From positions 1-64,000 of the forward strand of contig JAZDOG010000100.1 of the NCBI GenBank assembly GCA_043798915.1: DNA of 64,000 nt, read 5' to 3'. Below, piece after piece: positions 54,468 through 64,000 of this stretch. The stretch's first letter is position 1, and each line of letters opens with the position of its first letter. The notes below the pieces were generated by a model that saw nothing but the letters and a program-made list of their open reading frames with translations, was not told the DNA's origin and did not search any database. The DNA is from Pseudomonadota bacterium (GTDB lineage Bacteria > UBA10199 > 2-02-FULL-44-16 > JAAZCA01). Both the position numbers and the translations under genes were made by a program.

Positions 54468-55376
54468 TCAGGGAACGGTCTGGACAGAGGGCGCGCCATC
54501 TTCAGGCGCGGGCAGCCCATCCTCGGGCATCGGGGCCTCGGGCGCACCCGGCGGGACCTTCCCCTGGAGGAGCTCGATCACCTGATCGGCATATCTGTTG
54601 GATTTGACGGCATAGAAATGGATCTGGTCGCCGATGATCGTGAGCGAAATGAAGAGCAGGAGGATGCCGACATACCCCTTCACGTGAAATCCCAGCTCCC
54701 AGACGTTGATCTGCGGCGCGACGCGGTTTGCGATGCCCAGTATTATGTCTGCAAGAAAGATAGCGATGATCACCGGCGCCGCCATCTGCAGCGAGATGTA
54801 GATCACCTCGCCCGTGATCCTCATGAAGAGGTCCATCAGCGGGAAAAACCCGGGGCCAGCGATCGGCAAGCCGAGCACCGGCAAAGTTTTGAAGCTGCCG
54901 AAGCAGGAATCCAGAAAGGCGAGGTGCCCTCCGAGGACGAGATAGAGGACTACCCCCAGCTGGAAGAGGAATACGCCCGACATCGACGCCTGCTCCCCGA
55001 GCTGGGGTATGAGGAGCCGCGCGATGGACATGCCGCGCTGGTTGTCGATCATCTGTCCCACGGCGGCGAAGGCGTGGAAGATGAAGGACACGGACATGCC
55101 TATCGAGAGGCCGTAGAATATCTCCTTGAGATAGAGGACCACGAGGGCGAGCAGGTCCTGCGAGAGATTCGGAGGGGTCTTCGGGACGATGTGCGGGTAA
55201 ACGAAGATGGCCAGCACTATCGACGCCCCGACCACGACATATTTCGGCACCGGCTTGCCGAAAAGGAATGGAATGACCGACGCCATCATGAGCACCCTGA
55301 CCCAGATGAGCGACAGGAAGATCAGATGGAACGTAACATTGATATTGACGCCGATTTTGCCGAGGAAGTCTTGCAT
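54468..55376 (-). CDS. sctT: T3SS export apparatus SctT/FliR
   Basis: GQMIDNQRG, GGHL, MAAP..AIFLADIILGIANRVAPQINV. Confidence 0.92.
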   Translation of the reverse strand: MQDFLGKIGVNINVTFHLIFLSLIWVRVLMMASVIPFLFGKPVPKYVVVGASIVLAIFVYPHIVPKTPPNLSQDLLALVVLYLKEIFYGLSIGMSVSFIFHAFAAVGQMIDNQRGMSIARLLIPQLGEQASMSGVFLFQLGVVLYLVLGGHLAFLDSCFGSFKTLPVLGLPIAGPGFFPLMDLFMRITGEVIYISLQMAAPVIIAIFLADIILGIANRVAPQINVWELGFHVKGYVGILLLFISLTIIGDQIHFYAVKSNRYADQVIELLQGKVPPGAPEAPMPEDGLPAPEDGAPSVQTVP

Positions 55377-55391
55377 GATTTTGGCTGTCAG

Positions 55392-55658
55392 CTAATGCAC
55401 ATACGTCGCGAAGGAGCCGTAGATCGAGGCGGTGAATGCAACGAGCTGCGCGAGCATCCATGGCCCCGCGATGGCCAGCGTCGCGACGATCGCGAAGAGC
55501 TTGGGCACAAACGTGAGGGTCTGCTCCTGGATCTGCGTCGTCGCCTGCAGGATGCTGATGGTGAGGCCGACGAGCATGGCGACCAGCACCGGCGGCCCCG
55601 TGAGGACAAGCGCCAGAAACAGCGACTGCTTTGCGACGGCGATAAAATATTCAGGCAT
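55392..55658 (-). CDS. sctS: T3SS export apparatus SctS/FliQ
   Basis: VGLTISILQATTQIQEQTLTFVPK; start MPEYF at 55658. Confidence 0.93.
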   Translation of the reverse strand: MPEYFIAVAKQSLFLALVLTGPPVLVAMLVGLTISILQATTQIQEQTLTFVPKLFAIVATLAIAGPWMLAQLVAFTASIYGSFATYVH

Positions 55659-55663
55659 AGCGA

Positions 55664-56434
55664 TCAAACATACCCAAGGATCAGGCCCTTTGCGATGATA
55701 TGCCACCCGTCCACCAGGACGAAGAGCAGCAGCTTGAACGGCAGCGAAATCGTGATCGGCGAGATCTGGAACATGCCCAACGACAGCAGGATGTTGGCGA
55801 TCACGAGATCGATCACGAGGAACGGCAAAAAGATGATGAAGCCTATCTGGAAGGCCTCCGAGAGTTCGCTCACGACGAACGCGGGCACGATGTTGATGAA
55901 GTCCTGATCGGTGATCTCCGCCCTGTCTTCGTCCGTGGTCCGGAGTTTCAGCGCCAGGCTGTAGAAGAGGGTGCGCTCGGCCGGGTGCACGTGCTTGAGC
56001 AGGAACTTCCTCACCGGCTCCTTGGCCTCTCCCGCGCCCTTGGCCAGGAGCTGGATGGAGACCTGCGAGAGGAGGGGCTGATTCGTCCCCTGGTTTATCG
56101 TCTCGCCGGCGGCGCGGTAGACGTCGTAGCCCACCGGGACCATGATGTAGATCGTGAGGATCATCGCCAGCCCCGTGATGACGATGTTGGGAGGAACCTG
56201 CTGAGTGCCGATGGCATTCCTTATGAGAGACAGGACCACCGCGATCTTGACGAACGAGGTGATCATCATGATCAGGATCGGCACCATCGCCAGGACTGCG
56301 AGCACTATGAGCAAAACCAGCGGCTTCGAGATGCCCACGGAACCGGCCTGAGCATACGCAACCCCGGACAGCCCCAAACCCGCGAGCGACGTCAGGGAGC
56401 AAATCACCAGTTTCTTTTTCTTGTTCGCTTTCAT
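55664..56434 (-). CDS. sctR: T3SS export apparatus SctR/FliP
   Basis: TSFVKI, GTQQVPPN, PAFVVSEL..AFQIGF, ISLPFKLLLFVLVDGW. Confidence 0.95.
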   Translation of the reverse strand: MKANKKKKLVICSLTSLAGLGLSGVAYAQAGSVGISKPLVLLIVLAVLAMVPILIMMITSFVKIAVVLSLIRNAIGTQQVPPNIVITGLAMILTIYIMVPVGYDVYRAAGETINQGTNQPLLSQVSIQLLAKGAGEAKEPVRKFLLKHVHPAERTLFYSLALKLRTTDEDRAEITDQDFINIVPAFVVSELSEAFQIGFIIFLPFLVIDLVIANILLSLGMFQISPITISLPFKLLLFVLVDGWHIIAKGLILGYV

Positions 56435-62817: not shown

Positions 62818-62836
62818 AAACTCCTTGTGCCTTTAT

Positions 62837-63331
62837 TTACTGCACCTGCGTGTTGAGCACATTCTTCACCGAAGAGACTGCATTTTCAGTGACCTTCACC
62901 GTGAGCTCCGTCATCTGGGAAAAATGGAAGACGTGCGCCTGGATGACGAGCAGCTCCTGGTTGGAGAATTTCTTTCCGCTGTAGAGGACGTGATTGACGA
63001 GGCTGTCCATCTGCATCTGACCCTTGTTGACCTCGCCCAGCATGTCCAGCACCTTCTCTGATGCTGCCGGCTTCGAGAGGTCGGTCGCGTCCGTCGCGGG
63101 CGTGAAATCGACGCCGTCACCGCCCAAGGACTCGACGCTGGATGTCGGACTGATGTCCTGATTGCCTCCGACTCCCATCGTGTTGGCAAAATCCGCGCCG
63201 CTGTCCATCTGCGCGAGCATATCCTTGAAATTGGATCCCTGCATCTGCGGCTTCGCCATCTCATCGGACTTGATGGACGCCTTGGCCAGGGCTTCGCTCG
63301 AAAGTTTGCTGACTATCGCTTCGATCGCCAT
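62837..63331 (-). CDS. SctI-like (inner rod/HrpB2-type) protein
   Basis: C-terminal FSNQELLVIQAHV..FSQ..EL..KV.E.AVSSVKNVLNTQVQ helical hairpin. Confidence 0.65.
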   Translation of the reverse strand: MAIEAIVSKLSSEALAKASIKSDEMAKPQMQGSNFKDMLAQMDSGADFANTMGVGGNQDISPTSSVESLGGDGVDFTPATDATDLSKPAASEKVLDMLGEVNKGQMQMDSLVNHVLYSGKKFSNQELLVIQAHVFHFSQMTELTVKVTENAVSSVKNVLNTQVQ

Positions 63332-63334
63332 GAT

Positions 63335-64000
63335 TTACTCCTCGTCTCCCCCTTCGTTTTCCGGCCTTGCTGCCGACCGACCGCGGATGCGCTTGAAGAG
63401 CAGCGACAGGGCGCGCGCATGGAGCCTCGATGTCCACGACTTCGAGAGCCCCAGCTTCGTCCCCACATCCTCGAGCGTCCGATTTTGAAAGTAGTACATC
63501 ATGATCAGCTGCTTCTCCTTCTCCGGCAGCGTGCCGATGGCGTCGCGCATGTGGCGCCTGACCTGCATGAACTCGGTGCGCTGCTCGACGTTCGTTGCGT
63601 TCGTGTCCTCGACGTCAGAGTCCTCGGATGCGTCGAGCGAGATGATGTAGATGGATGCCAGGCTGTTGACGGTCTCGGCGATGACGTTCTCGTCACCCTC
63701 GAACACGCTGCTCTTGTTGGCGACCGTCCCGCCGCCATGGAGGGATTTGTTCTGCAGGTACTCGTTCGCGGCCTCATCGAACTTGATCTTCGCGTACAGC
63801 GTGCGCGGCAGCCAGCCGCTGCGGCGCAGGCCGTCGTATATCGCGCCCTTGACCCGGTAGTATGCGAATGTCTTGAAGTCGACGTCCTGGGCCTCGTCGA
63901 ACCGCTTGGCCGCTTCGAGGAGCCCAAGCCTCGCGTTGCACAGGACCTCCTCGTAGTCGACGGCTGCTGAAAGGCTCTGGCAGACGCGGTTGGCGATCGA
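63335..64000 (-). CDS. FliA/WhiG-family RNA polymerase sigma factor (5' end beyond window)
   Basis: Frame open to window end: GLLEAAKRFD...FKTFAYYRVKGAIYDGLR, region 4 LPEKEKQLIMMYYFQNRTLEDVG..LGLSKSWTSRLH. Confidence 0.92.
   Translation of the reverse strand, partial: SIANRVCQSLSAAVDYEEVLCNARLGLLEAAKRFDEAQDVDFKTFAYYRVKGAIYDGLRRSGWLPRTLYAKIKFDEAANEYLQNKSLHGGGTVANKSSVFEGDENVIAETVNSLASIYIISLDASEDSDVEDTNATNVEQRTEFMQVRRHMRDAIGTLPEKEKQLIMMYYFQNRTLEDVGTKLGLSKSWTSRLHARALSLLFKRIRGRSAARPENEGGDEE

Follow-up and report, generated by a model that had tools for sequence, protein, structure and literature searches.

Gene organisation of the cluster

The window analysed here, the whole stretch of 64,000 nucleotides, is part of a 98-kb contig. 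Pfam and NCBIfam profile searches recovered the core type III secretion system (T3SS) genes between 54468 and 64000, all on the minus strand and each one where the first-pass annotation had placed it. The cluster extends on the contig from about 46464 to about 72105, i.e. past the window end, and all its genes are intact. Genes and predicted promoters are listed by position (E-values from Pfam unless stated).

46464..49364, plus strand: Ser/Thr protein kinase with six PEGA domains (Pkinase E 1.5e-35, PEGA E 1.9e-77)
49378..50769, plus strand: sigma-54 enhancer-binding protein with N-terminal FHA domain (Sigma54_activat E 8.6e-69, FHA E 4.2e-20, HTH_8 E 1.5e-7)
50766..51305, minus strand: SycD/LcrH-like TPR chaperone, 179 aa (TPR families; TIGR02552 LcrH_SycD E 5.3e-20)
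51321..52238, minus strand: conserved 305-aa protein between the two SycD-like chaperones, candidate chaperoned substrate
52252..52884, minus strand: SycD/LcrH-like TPR chaperone (LcrH_SycD as top NCBIfam match with E 7.5e-22 and 77.5 bits, under the cut-off)
53140..54240, minus strand: conserved 366-aa protein behind a sigma-54-type promoter, candidate secreted substrate
54310..54325, minus strand: predicted promoter TGGCATCCCGCTTGCA of sigma-54 type in front of the 366-aa gene, one mismatch to TGGCAC-N5-TTGCA
54468..55376, minus strand: SctT/FliR export-gate subunit (Bac_export_1 E 4.5e-49)
55392..55658, minus strand: SctS/FliQ export-gate subunit (Bac_export_3 E 2e-27)
55664..56434, minus strand: SctR/FliP export-gate subunit (FliP E 1.9e-66)
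56431..56784, minus strand: FliO (FliO E 1.9e-14; passes NCBIfam TIGR03500 with 59.9 bits, cut-off 55.25)
56902..57384, minus strand: FliN-like protein with SpoA domain (FliMN_C E 4.9e-17)
57386..58312, minus strand: FliM-like protein, 308 aa (FliM E 1e-19, 71.7 bits, cut-off 27)
58343..59122, minus strand: SctP/FliK-like protein with substrate-switch domain (Flg_hook E 4.8e-8, 33.1 bits, cut-off 29.8)
59135..59665, minus strand: SctO/FliJ stalk protein (YscO-like E 3.3e-23)
59658..60989, minus strand: SctN ATPase (ATP-synt_ab E 1.7e-88, T3SS_ATPase_C E 2.3e-26)
60982..61656, minus strand: SctL/FliH stator (FliH E 5e-21, T3SS_SCTL E 5.1e-8)
61750..62817, minus strand: full-length FliG homologue in the SctK position (FliG_C 33.7 bits, FliG_M 27.2 bits, both above cut-off)
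62837..63331, minus strand: SctI-like (inner-rod-like) protein, 164 aa (family-level links; no Pfam or NCBIfam family itself)
63335..64000, minus strand: FliA/WhiG-like sigma factor, truncated where the window stops (Sigma70_r2, r4)
contig 64271-64286: predicted sigma-54-type promoter of the sigma factor gene (motif match)
contig 68503-69042/69111: candidate needle-like protein, 179-202 aa (C-terminal alignment to MxiH and YscF)

The P-loop AAAGVGKS of the ATPase (from residue 173) and the gene order sctL-N-O-P-Q-R-S-T, both proposed earlier, were confirmed.

Export gate, ATPase complex and cytoplasmic ring

The encoded export gate consists of SctR, SctS, SctT and FliO in the cluster, and of SctU and SctV, which are encoded on other contigs, away from the main cluster. 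With the NCBIfam models, SctR passed the SctR models (247.7 bits for a cut-off of 179; 228.8 for 208.6) and failed the FliP model (192.4, cut-off 217.45), and SctV passed hrcV (791.8 for 692.25) and failed FlhA (684.2 for 772.1). SctS exceeded the cut-offs of both FliQ (92.4 for 88.9) and SctS (78.9 for 76.5), SctN passed the FliI_clade2 and SctN equivalog models alike, and SctT stayed under the respective cut-offs with 141 bits for SctT and 134.8 for FliR. SctU reads NPTE where NPTH is expected, which might alter the switch.

The gene set also specifies a short SctJ lipoprotein ring, an SctL/N/O ATPase complex and a FliK/SctP-type switch protein. SctN is the sole T3SS ATPase in the genome, and the SctO product scored 27.9 bits with the FliJ family of Pfam, slightly below the cut-off of 28.4. 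SctJ, encoded past the window end, has 322 aa, a lipobox-like Cys and a single C-terminal membrane helix; it is not a FliF, a protein of ~520-555 aa.

The cytoplasmic ring set is still flagellar by composition, FliG, FliM and FliN each being a separate protein. The FliG homologue and the separate FliM-like and FliN-like genes, as well as FliO, had been reported from the sequence and all have Pfam matches. When the family profile of the FliG homologue was compared with the PDB, seven FliG chains were found (E 2.5e-4 to 0.16), followed by the LicT antiterminator as the eighth and weakest match (E 0.39). Foldseek with its AlphaFold2 model (pLDDT 84.6) gave FliG structures at all of ranks 1-13, with E-values of 2.7e-3 to 0.29, none of them at or below 0.001. 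By hhalign it aligned to E. coli FliG with E 0.016 over 199 columns, and to YscK with E 0.33. The FliM-like protein matched the NCBIfam FliM model with E 2e-20, under the cut-off. The best NCBIfam match of the FliN-like protein was the SctQ C-terminus (E 4e-20), followed by FliN (E 1.1e-16), both under cut-off. Its longest reading frame starts at 57453, and the start read from the sequence as the likely one, 57384, lies one base past the fliM-like stop.

Parts that were not found

The absence of rod, hook, flagellin and motor genes, noted earlier for the window, holds for the rest of the contig and for the genome, as far as an assembly that is 97.2% complete can tell. Flagellin_N, Flg_bb_rod, Flg_bbr_C, MotB_plug and FliE had no match in it, the sequence past 64000 and the whole genome gave zero flg, fliC and mot genes, and neither axial nor motor genes of flagellar type were detected anywhere in the genome. 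The sequence past 64000, where a look for further injectisome parts had been advised, holds SctJ and a weak SctF-like candidate, but SctC and SctD, as well as SctW, were not found in or near the cluster. Four secretins are encoded in the genome and none adjoins a type III gene. One belongs to a Tad-like cluster; the fourth (contig C95) lies outside the T2SS, type IV pilus and Tad clusters, beside genes for an AAA_22 ATPase and for proteins that fall into no Pfam family. The cluster itself encodes no route across the outer membrane.

SctI-like protein, possible needle-like module and candidate substrates

The gene earlier called SctI-like is present, but its product can be linked to SctI only indirectly, through its family, and the protein has no Pfam match of its own. 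The family profile aligned with a Sumerlaeota protein (hhalign 98.5%, E 3.4e-15) that matches PF17001 (E 2.2e-6) and is encoded between sigma and sctJ genes. Weak scores were obtained for PF17001 in five of the 22 members and for FliE in one of the 22, and direct hhalign comparisons with YscI (E 0.058) and FliE (E 0.25) were not significant.

A needle-like module may tentatively be recognised next to sctJ, where a 117-aa protein without known identity, the needle-like protein and a 158-aa TPR protein precede sctJ in this order. In the needle-like family, the last 43 residues aligned to the extreme C-terminus of MxiH (hhalign E 0.002) and to that of YscF (E 0.031), with low probabilities of 13.7% and 1.6%. 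None of the seven family members scanned matched T3SS_needle_F of Pfam, and the family profile found no needle chain in the PDB. The second-best NCBIfam match of the TPR protein was CdsG (E 3.6e-7), a family of chlamydial needle chaperones.

SycD chaperones had also been claimed: LcrH/SycD is indeed the best NCBIfam match of the chaperones, yet the scores stay under the curated cut-off (71.5 bits for the 50766..51305 product, cut-off 104.8). This is equally true of a third TPR protein past the window. The start codon of the 52252..52884 chaperone is uncertain and may be at 52815. The 305-aa protein belongs to no family in Pfam or NCBIfam, has orthologues of 24-47% identity in related loci, and contains a single weak hydrophobic segment (residues 184-202). 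For the 366-aa protein 126 homologues were found, every one unnamed or 'hypothetical'. Its AlphaFold2 model (pLDDT 68) begins with a small domain, which is followed by a helical hairpin, a Gly/Ser linker that is disordered, and long helices in the C-terminal part; a fold search with this model gave nothing at E <= 0.001 and matched no tip or translocator fold, the best such row being IpaB (rank 29, E 1.6).

Predicted regulation and candidate regulon

The sigma factor gene runs on to contig 64207 or 64264. FliA/WhiG, as claimed before, is the best NCBIfam match of its product, which is the top FliA_WhiG match of the genome, but its 130 bits are below the cut-off of 189.6. Ten related loci hold an orthologue of the 366-aa gene, and in 8 of them it is preceded by the same sigma-54-type motif; a similar motif precedes the sigma factor gene orthologue in 13 of 23 related loci. 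Genome-wide, 45 sigma-54-type motifs were counted, against 8-12 in five shuffles, and RpoN is encoded in the genome. The FHA-domain activator may act at the two predicted sigma-54-type promoters, and the kinase, which adjoins it on its upstream side, is a candidate upstream sensor of the cluster.

A second motif, GCAAC-N14-17-GCCGATAA, occurs 48 times in the genome (0-2 times in five shuffles), including three copies within the cluster. At 52874-52901, the first codons of the longest reading frame of the 52252..52884 chaperone overlap with a TAGT-N16-GCCGATAA motif. Outside the cluster, 19 of the 34 genes downstream of GCAAC-N14-17-GCCGATAA have no Pfam family and 27 of the 34 have no N-terminal hydrophobic stretch. 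The in-cluster sigma factor could be paired with the GCCGATAA promoters, solely by its likeness to sigma-28. A two-step cascade from sigma-54 to sigma-28 is the flagellar hierarchy of several bacteria. The GCCGATAA -10 box is shared with the flagellar system, whereas the -35 box here is GCAAC(TTT) and that of the E. coli FliA consensus reads TAAA. The sigma-54-type promoters, the genome-wide GCAAC-N14-17-GCCGATAA motif and the tentative needle-like module are predictions from sequence that are new here.

Distribution and phylogeny

Of the 93 genomes of the phylum, which are small (1.1-4.6 Mb), 92 carry the FliG homologue, including all 63 of high quality, and synteny of the cluster is kept in about 25 related MAG loci. 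Flagellin was found in 12 of the 93. All five flagellated members tested hold an SctN orthologue (72-82% identity) together with a second, flagellar ATPase (48-50%), and an SctV orthologue (74-80%) together with FlhA (38-41%). The system is a core trait across the phylum and is distinct from the flagella of some members.

In a careful SctN tree, built like the SctV tree without Myxococcus sequences, the proteins of the phylum formed their own lineage (100/97), joined at 95/93 to the type found in Acidobacteriota, Planctomycetota and Sumerlaeota. The phylum's own FliI was a separate clade (100/100) within a flagellar clade (92/63). In the SctV tree the flagellar and non-flagellar sequences were split with an SH-aLRT of 100, and the system studied lay on the non-flagellar side. 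The first-pass annotation had named nesting of the core genes in ordinary flagellar clades, followed by flg, fliC or mot genes, as the contrary outcome. SctN and SctV lie outside the flagellar clades, and relatives with flagella hold the T3SS besides a separate flagellar set.

These results support a non-flagellar T3SS that mixes parts of two types, as had been proposed. The short SctJ lipoprotein, the YscO-like protein, the SycD-like chaperones and the I-(J)-K-L / N-O-P-Q-R-S-T order are of injectisome type, and FliG, separate FliM and FliN, FliO and the FliA-like sigma factor are of flagellar type. The deep-branching position also proposed is conjectural with respect to canonical injectisomes: in the SctN tree the joint node with Chlamydiae and Ysc/Rhc/Hrc/Mxi was supported at only 69/0.

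Comparison with known systems

By gene content and published descriptions, the closest known system is the 'needleless' T3SS* of Myxococcus xanthus (MXAN_2434-2464), or the 'Myxo' group of Abby and Rocha 2012. T3SS* is described as comprising SctD, J, I, Q, RSTUV, N, L and LcrH-like chaperones with no secretin, and as acting in prey lysis (PMC10433427). Common to both, according to these descriptions, are SctRSTUV, SctN, SctL, SctJ, an SctI-type protein, a C-ring protein, several LcrH/SycD-like chaperones, and the lack of a dedicated secretin and of a recognisable tip or translocon (PMC10433427; PMC3459982). FliO is reported in both non-flagellar systems of M. xanthus (PMC12403147), whose genome, like this one, has a Tad-like cluster with its own secretin. 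The system described here differs in having a FliG homologue, while Myxo systems are described without FliG (PMC3459982), and separate FliM and FliN genes in place of a single SctQ. SctD, part of T3SS* as described, is absent, which resembles the 'short' Myxo locus. Also different are the in-cluster FliA-like sigma factor with its genome-wide promoter motif, the unlinked SctU and SctV, and the host, which belongs to another phylum, uncultured and with small genomes, that carries the system throughout. The needle-like module, if present, would be a misfit to the label 'needleless'.

The related MAG clusters of Acidobacteriota (two loci), Sumerlaeota and Planctomycetota, whose SctN is the sister group, have a similar order: sigma, SctI/F-like, SctJ, FliG_M-like, SctL, N, O, P, Q, FliO, R, S, T, U (and V) plus TPR chaperones. 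Their C-ring protein is one fused FHA-FliM-FliN of ~490 aa, their FliG-like match is weaker (FliG_M domain only), and SctU is in the locus, as is SctV in both Acidobacteriota loci, whereas here two genes encode FliM and FliN, and neither SctU nor SctV is linked to the cluster.

Canonical injectisomes (Ysc of Yersinia pYV, Mxi-Spa, Hrc, Rhc, chlamydial Cds) share the gene order, which matches yscI-J-K-L / N-O-P-Q-R-S-T-U of Yersinia, the lipoprotein SctJ, the YscO-type SctO, the SycD-class chaperones, the preference of SctV and SctR for Sct over flagellar models and the tree side of SctN and SctV. Unlike them, our cluster lacks SctC, SctD, SctW and a recognisable SctF, tip or translocators, has the FliG homologue in the SctK position, contains FliO, divides the role of SctQ between two genes, and would be under sigma-54 and sigma-28 style control instead of AraC-type control. 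The E. coli flagellum shares FliG, FliM, FliN, FliO, FliH/I/J, the FliK switch domain, FliPQR and the FliA-like sigma factor, and the order is collinear with fliE | FGHIJK | LMNOPQR. In contrast to the flagellum, SctJ replaces FliF, SycD-like chaperones are present, the ATPase and SctV fall outside the flagellar clades, and FliE, rod, hook, filament, MotB and flagellin are missing from the genome.

Interpretation

The best explanation overall is a flagellum-like, secretin-less T3SS similar in general type to the myxobacterial 'Myxo'/T3SS* systems, to which we give a probability of about 0.65. A full injectisome directed against a host, either eukaryotic or bacterial, with a real needle, the 366-aa and 305-aa proteins as translocators with SycD-like chaperones, and an unlinked secretin, seems unlikely, although the order from the 117-aa protein to sctJ resembles yscE-F-G...J and the CdsG match and the MxiH and YscF alignments are in its favour. 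So are the FliK/SctP switch domain, which implies a structure of measured length, the fourth secretin, which belongs to none of the other clusters, and the small genomes with phylum-wide presence, as in Chlamydiae. The low needle probabilities, the negative needle searches in Pfam and the PDB, and the failure to find SctC, SctD and SctW in or near the cluster argue against it, and the candidate translocators are both without clear membrane helices, the larger also without a tip or translocator fold.

It is still less probable that a flagellar-type export core serves another use, such as membrane nanotubes or export only into the periplasm or vesicles. The cluster encodes no outer-membrane route, the flagellar export core has been proposed as a nanotube platform (PMC6456723), and Abby and Rocha argue that secretion by Myxo systems may not reach the outside of the cell (PMC3459982). 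However, an own ATPase complex, switch protein, SycD-like chaperones and SctI-like protein exceed a bare core, a large dedicated regulon of signal-less proteins is predicted, and the M. xanthus relative is described as acting on prey cells (PMC10433427). A decaying leftover of a flagellar gene set, functionless at present, is disfavoured and hardly credible: flagellar-type parts are there, outer parts are missing and SctU and SctV are scattered across the genome, but every gene is intact, synteny is kept in about 25 related loci and the FliG homologue across the phylum, promoter motifs are conserved in related loci, and the five flagellated members tested carry complete-looking flagellar ATPase and FlhA genes separately, the FliI of the phylum forming its own clade.

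For the Myxo-like T3SS, the following mode of action can be proposed. The kinase and the FHA-domain sigma-54 activator would turn on the gene of the in-cluster FliA-like sigma factor together with that of one substrate. This sigma factor would then read the GCAAC-N14-17-GCCGATAA promoters, which would front the needle-like module, one small membrane protein and some 35 other genes, most of them for large proteins without known family or signal peptide that are candidate cargo. On contact with another cell, prey or host, the machine might export the SctI-like and perhaps the SctF-like axial protein, and then the cargo. A role in prey or host contact is conceivable. Since a non-flagellar export machine has here kept a number of flagellar parts along with predicted gene control of flagellar style, the system should be useful for understanding how injection machines evolved from flagella.

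A type III secretion gene cluster reaching beyond the window

The contig (C20, 98,121 bp), the first 64 kb of which form the window, belongs to a genome of 2.34 Mb in 105 contigs that is 97.2% complete. From position 54468 to the window end, 13 minus-strand genes lie head to tail and 11 of them were clearly named by Pfam and NCBIfam. Since these matches name 11 genes, and a 164-aa protein of no family and a sigma gene complete the row, the gene list of the first-pass annotation for 54468-64000 is correct. The whole type III secretion system (T3SS) cluster is arranged as follows.

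46464-49364, Ser/Thr kinase with PEGA domains, preceding the sigma-54 activator
49378-50769, strand opposite to the core, FHA-domain sigma-54 activator
50766-52884, inside the window, SycD-like TPR protein, 305-aa protein of no named family (51321-52238) and second SycD-like TPR protein
53140-54240, inside the window and downstream of the core, conserved 366-aa protein of no family
54468 onwards, minus strand, the 11 named genes: SctT/FliR, SctS/FliQ, SctR/FliP, FliO, FliN-type SpoA protein, FliM-like protein, Flg_hook protein, YscO-like protein, ATPase, SctL/FliH and a protein with FliG_M and FliG_C domains (61750-62817)
56431-56784, minus strand, the FliO gene among these, above both curated cut-offs (Pfam and NCBIfam)
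62837-63331, minus strand, upstream of the 11 named genes, 164-aa protein without any family
then, minus strand, sigma-70-family gene truncated by the window end, its end lying beyond the window at contig position 64207 or 64264
64515-65999 of the contig, beyond the window, thioredoxin/TPR protein
beyond the window, 130-aa protein, and 141-154-aa protein with one membrane helix
67026-67994 of the contig, beyond the window, 322-aa SctJ-type lipoprotein
beyond the window, 158-aa TPR protein with NCBIfam matches to LcrH/SycD, CdsG and SctY, all below the cut-offs
beyond the window, 179-202-aa Gly-rich protein (68503-69042/69111), 117-aa protein and 848-aa protein

Housekeeping genes (RluD-like, SNF2 helicase) come next after the 848-aa gene.

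Pfam and NCBIfam matches showed that SctR, S, T, U and V of the export apparatus were all present, as was the ATPase SctN, whose P-loop (AAAGVGKS) is at residue 173, and the Flg_hook protein corresponded to the FliK/SctP switch domain (Pfam). SctV is encoded away from the cluster, directly after secA on another contig, where sctV starts 77 bases past secA (C42:14129-19058). In the region C13:16193-19521, sctU lies divergently to genes for a further PEGA Ser/Thr kinase and an FHA-GGDEF protein, an arrangement that resembles the kinase with its FHA activator next to the main cluster. FlhB/SctU proteins are expected to bear the autocleavage motif NPTH; SctU of this genome (C13:18424-19521; L010:9424-10521) has NPTE in its place, which may change the substrate switch.

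The thioredoxin/TPR and 130-aa genes (C20:64515-66462) and the 848-aa gene (C20:69538-72084) gave zero tblastn matches in 80 related loci. They were therefore not counted as structural parts and are treated as what they resemble, variable cargo or insertions specific to the lineage. A Pfam scan of 41 members of five families (needle-like Gly-rich, 366-aa, 305-aa, 154-aa and 117-aa proteins) gave scattered matches below the cut-offs only, and a fold search with the model of the 366-aa protein gave nothing at E <= 0.001. No public sequencing runs, RNA included, were listed as containing window positions 54468-63331. Elsewhere in the window, 18001-20000 was a low-GC island (0.45 versus about 0.60) with a RhuM-family gene inside, and several HEPN/nucleotidyltransferase pairs and one ParE-type pair were spread over the contig.

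Flagellar parts, ring protein and secretins

No match to Flagellin_N, Flg_bb_rod, Flg_bbr_C, FliE or MotB_plug was obtained in the 97.2% complete genome, and the same searches gave matches in flagellated control genomes; the absence of rod, hook and flagellin genes noticed earlier in the window thus extends, for these families, to the genome. There is one T3SS ATPase only. In the place of FliF there is a 322-aa SctJ (Pfam YscJ_FliF, E 2.7e-23) whose best NCBIfam match was SctJ (E 6.2e-39, below the cut-off), the FliF model giving E 4.3e-9, and which has a signal with a Cys and a single C-terminal membrane helix. The FliG, FliM and FliN homologues accompany a short SctJ and not FliF. SctV passed the curated hrcV cut-off and missed that of FlhA, and SctR passed the SctR models and missed the FliP cut-off, whereas SctN and SctS were above the cut-offs of flagellar and Sct models alike (NCBIfam).

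A dedicated secretin SctC was not found, as none of the four secretins of the genome adjoined a T3SS gene. Three belonged to clusters for type II secretion, a type IV pilus and Tad. The fourth (718 aa, C95:4813-6969, L011) had an AAA_22 ATPase and small unnamed proteins as neighbours; its best models were PilQ, GspD and MshL, and no pilus or T3SS gene was linked to it. This secretin is a candidate for the outer-membrane partner of the system. No SctD-type match was obtained among the cluster proteins and no SctW was found; the Yop-YscD_cpl/FHA domain was seen on just two proteins, the sigma-54 activator and the FHA-GGDEF protein beside sctU. The search beyond position 64000 that the first-pass annotation had proposed yielded SctJ, a possible SctF (the Gly-rich protein) and, on other contigs, SctU and SctV, with no matches for flg genes or the MotB plug; neither SctC nor SctD was found.

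The FliG homologue

A database search with the protein encoded at 61750-62817 gave 77 proteins, including that of the window itself, and 75 of them had 44-65% identity, the majority with FliG_M and/or FliG_C matches. When a profile of 33 members was compared with solved structures, seven FliG chains were obtained (E 2.5e-4 to 0.16), followed by a single weaker match, to a LicT antiterminator (E 0.39). The AlphaFold2 model had a pLDDT of 84.6, and the 13 best Foldseek matches to it were all FliG, aligned over the full length (E 2.7e-3 to 0.29, none <= 0.001). By hhalign, 199 columns aligned with the middle and C-terminal domains of E. coli FliG (E 0.016), and the comparison with YscK gave nothing (E 0.33). 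The position of the gene corresponds to the yscK slot in yscI-J-K-L and equally to the fliG slot in fliF-G-H-I. A complex prediction for residues 1-325 with the SctJ tail (residues 268-322) scored 0.02 against a mark of 0.32 and counts neither way.

In the literature we found no FliG homologue described in a non-flagellar T3SS, although the supplements of PMC3459982 and PMC12403147 may list relevant FliG-like or FliO genes; nor did we find a T3SS of this type described for this lineage or for Acidobacteriota.

Axial proteins

The C-terminal 65 residues of the 164-aa family were strongly conserved. This family matched a Sumerlaeota protein encoded between the sigma and sctJ genes (hhalign, 98.5%), which in turn matched the SctI family with E 2.2e-6; among 22 members of the 164-aa family, five scored weakly to SctI and one to FliE. 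Direct hhalign comparisons with YscI (E 0.058) and E. coli FliE (E 0.25) were not significant. With moderate confidence, this chain of matches suggests that the 164-aa protein is SctI-like. A profile search of the protein database gave 270 matches; the 120 listed were proteins of about 160-174 aa, unnamed or "hypothetical", with the sole exception of a JGI record that carried an evidently unrelated restriction-enzyme name, and no named Myxococcus relative was among these 120.

The C-terminal helix of the 179-202-aa Gly-rich family aligned to the extreme C-terminal ends of MxiH and YscF, sharing N, LL, Q, S and F positions, with low hhalign probabilities (MxiH, E 0.002, probability 13.7%; YscF, E 0.031). 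Pfam gave no match above the cut-off and the PDB profiles no match, the rows obtained in PDB profile searches with this and the SctI-like family being at chance level. Compared with each other, the two families gave E 0.029 over the N-terminal region only, which was not significant. The neighbours of the Gly-rich gene (the 117-aa helical protein, the CdsG/YscG-like TPR protein and then sctJ) mirror the order yscE-F-G...J. The presence of the FliK/SctP switch domain is a further argument that the system builds something with a measured length. The odds that the Gly-rich protein is a real needle subunit are about even.

Phylogeny and sister-type clusters

In a careful SctN tree of 47 rows (model LG+C20+F+G4), with the F1 alpha and beta subunits of the same genome as root, the lineage of the system was a clade with support 100/97 in which the copies of flagellated members were included. 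Its sister, at 95/93, was a group of Acidobacteriota, Planctomycetota and Sumerlaeota, and Chlamydiae together with Ysc/Rhc/Hrc/Mxi-Spa formed another group (97/93). The flagellar FliI of the phylum (100/100) was part of a flagellar clade (92/63) that also contained the FliI of E. coli, Azospirillum, Clostridium and others. The node joining the two non-flagellar groups was unsupported (69/0); an earlier quick tree had given it SH-aLRT 99, but the careful tree is the one trusted, and it fixes neither the branching order nor the root. In a quick, unrooted SctV tree (24 rows, seven of them flagellar FlhA), flagellar FlhA split from all else (SH-aLRT 100), and the non-flagellar side held the system, the Acidobacteriota type and LcrD/MxiA/HrcV. 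Both trees had few flagellar references and no Myxococcus row, and the search of genome contigs with SctN gave no match carrying the name Myxococcus. The nesting within flagellar clades that would have spoken against the first-pass annotation was seen for neither SctN nor SctV. Its finding is real and its interpretation as a mosaic, non-flagellar T3SS largely right; its deep branching relative to canonical injectisomes had no support at the 69/0 node.

For the sister type, three loci (two from Acidobacteriota, one from Sumerlaeota) were annotated with Pfam and gave the order sigma, SctI/F-like, SctJ, FliG_M-like, SctL, N, O, P, a fused FHA-FliM-FliN protein, FliO, R, S, T and U (and V), with TPR chaperones also present and with FliF and rod genes absent in these three loci. 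This content indicates that non-flagellar systems bearing FliG and FliO and linked to a sigma factor occur in several phyla. The FHA-like domain of injectisomes is carried by SctD. In the sister-type loci an N-terminal FHA domain was found on the fused C-ring protein of about 490 aa, followed by FliM-like and FliN parts, at these positions:

L039:12448-13935
L058:2886-4385
L044:12459-13922

Distribution in the phylum and coexistence with flagella

The closest SctN relatives (72-89% identity) came from about 25 metagenome-assembled genomes with the titles Deltaproteobacteria (RIFCSP, CG11, NC_groundwater), Myxococcales, Myxococcota, Pseudomonadota or "bacterium", names that we take to belong to GTDB phylum UBA10199. 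Gene content and gene order were conserved in their loci, and this extended to the FliG homologue, the 164-aa protein, the sigma factor, SctJ and the proteins of no named family. In a sample of 93 species-level genomes of the phylum (one class, 24 families, 1.1-4.6 Mb), the FliG-family profile matched 92, including all 63 of high quality, and the lone miss was 78% complete.

Flagellin matches were found in 12 of the 93 genomes (11 over the cut-off). Each of the five flagellin-bearing genomes tested had an SctN orthologue of 72-82% identity together with a second ATPase of 48-50%, and at least two FlhA/SctV proteins, one of 74-80% and one of 38-41% identity. Two sets of both proteins in the same genome imply that the T3SS is a machine separate from the flagellum of the lineage and not a decaying form of it.

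In one 4.6 Mb genome (G083; C22:39774-41810, L157) there was a third FlhA/SctV paralogue, which grouped on a long branch with LcrD/MxiA/HrcV in the SctV tree and may represent a second system of canonical type. A flagellated member (G055; C1:1812749-1814837, L156 and L163) had its SctV orthologue in two overlapping frames of 569 and 190 aa, which would reflect either a frameshift or an assembly error.

Regulation and candidate cargo

Sigma-54-type promoters were found upstream of the sigma gene (TGGCACGCTTTCTGCA, contig 64271-64286) and of the 366-aa gene (TGGCATCCCGCTTGCA, 54310-54325), and like motifs preceded the orthologue of the former in 13 of 23 related loci and that of the latter in 8 of 10. 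Such motifs numbered 45 in the genome versus 8-12 in shuffles and lay mostly just upstream of genes, and RpoN is encoded in the genome.

The -10 octamer GCCGATAA of a sigma-28-type motif occurred 143 times in the genome. Preceded by a -35 half, as GCAAC-N14-17-GCCGATAA, it occurred 48 times, compared with 0-2 in five shuffles. Three copies lie in the cluster, ahead of the 848-aa, Gly-rich and 141-aa membrane-protein genes, a fourth is found further down the contig, and a variant precedes the first SycD-like gene. Inspection by eye of related loci showed GCAAC/ACAAC...CCGATA ahead of the orthologues in 7 of 8 and 4 of 6 cases, the other two of those six having the -35 half at the edge of the stretch examined. 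By analogy, we tentatively assigned the motif to the sigma factor of the cluster because this protein is the best FliA/WhiG match in the genome, though below the curated cut-off (130-131 bits versus 189.6), and it would be the factor that reads it.

Behind this motif there were 34 further genes, which we infer to be candidate cargo. Nineteen had no Pfam family, including proteins of 1538, 1238, 1109, 746 and 718 aa, and the rest included two S8 proteases, a 2635-aa protein with an M48 motif, a 1972-aa FHA protein, a CAP-domain protein, a zincin, two FGE-sulfatase-like proteins and a GGDEF protein. An N-terminal hydrophobic stretch was absent in 27 of the 34. Several large signal-less proteins behind the sigma-28-like promoter had a similar N-terminus, M-x-(A/G)-G-G-(D/E)-I-(K/P)-K..G, which may be a shared export or modification signal. 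They are encoded at:

L138, C76:25204
L144, C85:35886
L132, C46:55590
L139, C80:7369

A 16-mer, TTTGCTCCGTCTGACG, precedes each of the two sigma-54-type promoters of the cluster by about 65-85 bases (window 54388-54403 and C20:64354-64369). It had nine genome sites, including an inverted pair on C97 and sites near two GCAAC..GCCGATAA promoters (C83 and C85). Its reading as the binding site of the activator was dropped because nine copies, an inverted pair among them, make membership in a repeat family possible; it could be either a regulator site or part of such a family.

Comparison with the Myxococcus system and significance

What is known of how flagella gave rise to injectisomes comes mainly from phylogenetic trees and a single studied organism, Myxococcus. 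The "needleless" T3SS of M. xanthus (T3SS*, MXAN_2434-2464) is described as having SctD, J, I, Q, RSTUV, N and L with several LcrH-like chaperones, a system without secretin, needle or translocon, which gathers with a Tad-like Kil system at prey contact sites and is needed for prey lysis (PMC10433427, PMC10849154). Its effectors are described there as unknown (PMC10433427). A recent paper reports that both M. xanthus systems include FliO (PMC12403147). According to Abby and Rocha, the Myxo group is sister to all other injectisomes and is stated, from 2012 profiles, to lack FliG among other proteins (PMC3459982).

The system studied here resembles Myxo and T3SS* in its gate, ATPase, SctJ, SctI, C-ring and LcrH-like chaperones and in having no secretin, tip or translocon, as far as those accounts of the known systems go (PMC10433427; PMC3459982), and in the FliO within the system, as reported for both M. 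xanthus systems (PMC12403147). As in M. xanthus, a Tad-like cluster is also found in the genome. In contrast to Myxo and T3SS*, the system has a FliG homologue and separate FliM and FliN, and no SctD was found in the cluster; a sigma factor and its putative regulon belong to the cluster, a needle module may be present, and the host belongs to another phylum, in which the system is universal. We call it Myxo-like in build rather than a proven member of that clade, because it was likened by composition and the trees contained no Myxococcus sequences.

A possible reading, to which we give a probability of roughly 0.3, is that this is a living flagellum-injectisome intermediate. It would have an SctJ ring with a true FliG-FliM-FliN ring in the place of SctK/SctQ, a short needle of SctI/SctF type and a retained hierarchy of sigma-54 and then sigma-28, the regulon of about 48 promoters being its cargo list. 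Since 92 of 93 genomes keep the system, the whole phylum would depend, like Chlamydiae, on contact-dependent secretion into other cells, its members being predators, epibionts or symbionts.

The evolutionary idea of a passage from flagellum to injectisome is already in print. The concrete, testable additions are the FliG homologue in the SctK position, the conservation throughout the phylum, the occurrence alongside flagella and the sharp delimitation of the regulon. With FliG, separate FliM and FliN, FliO and a putative flagellar-style sigma cascade kept, and with FliF already replaced by SctJ and SycD-type chaperones gained, the system illustrates a possible origin of SctK from FliG and of SctQ from FliM and FliN. 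The sharp promoter motif leads to a list of about 35 candidate substrates, most without a named family, such as is missing for the Myxococcus system in the account of PMC10433427. In phylum members that have the system as well as a flagellum, the two machines can be compared cleanly within a single cell, and the universality of the system in this uncultured phylum, whose genomes measure 1.1-4.6 Mb, is a testable clue to how the phylum lives.
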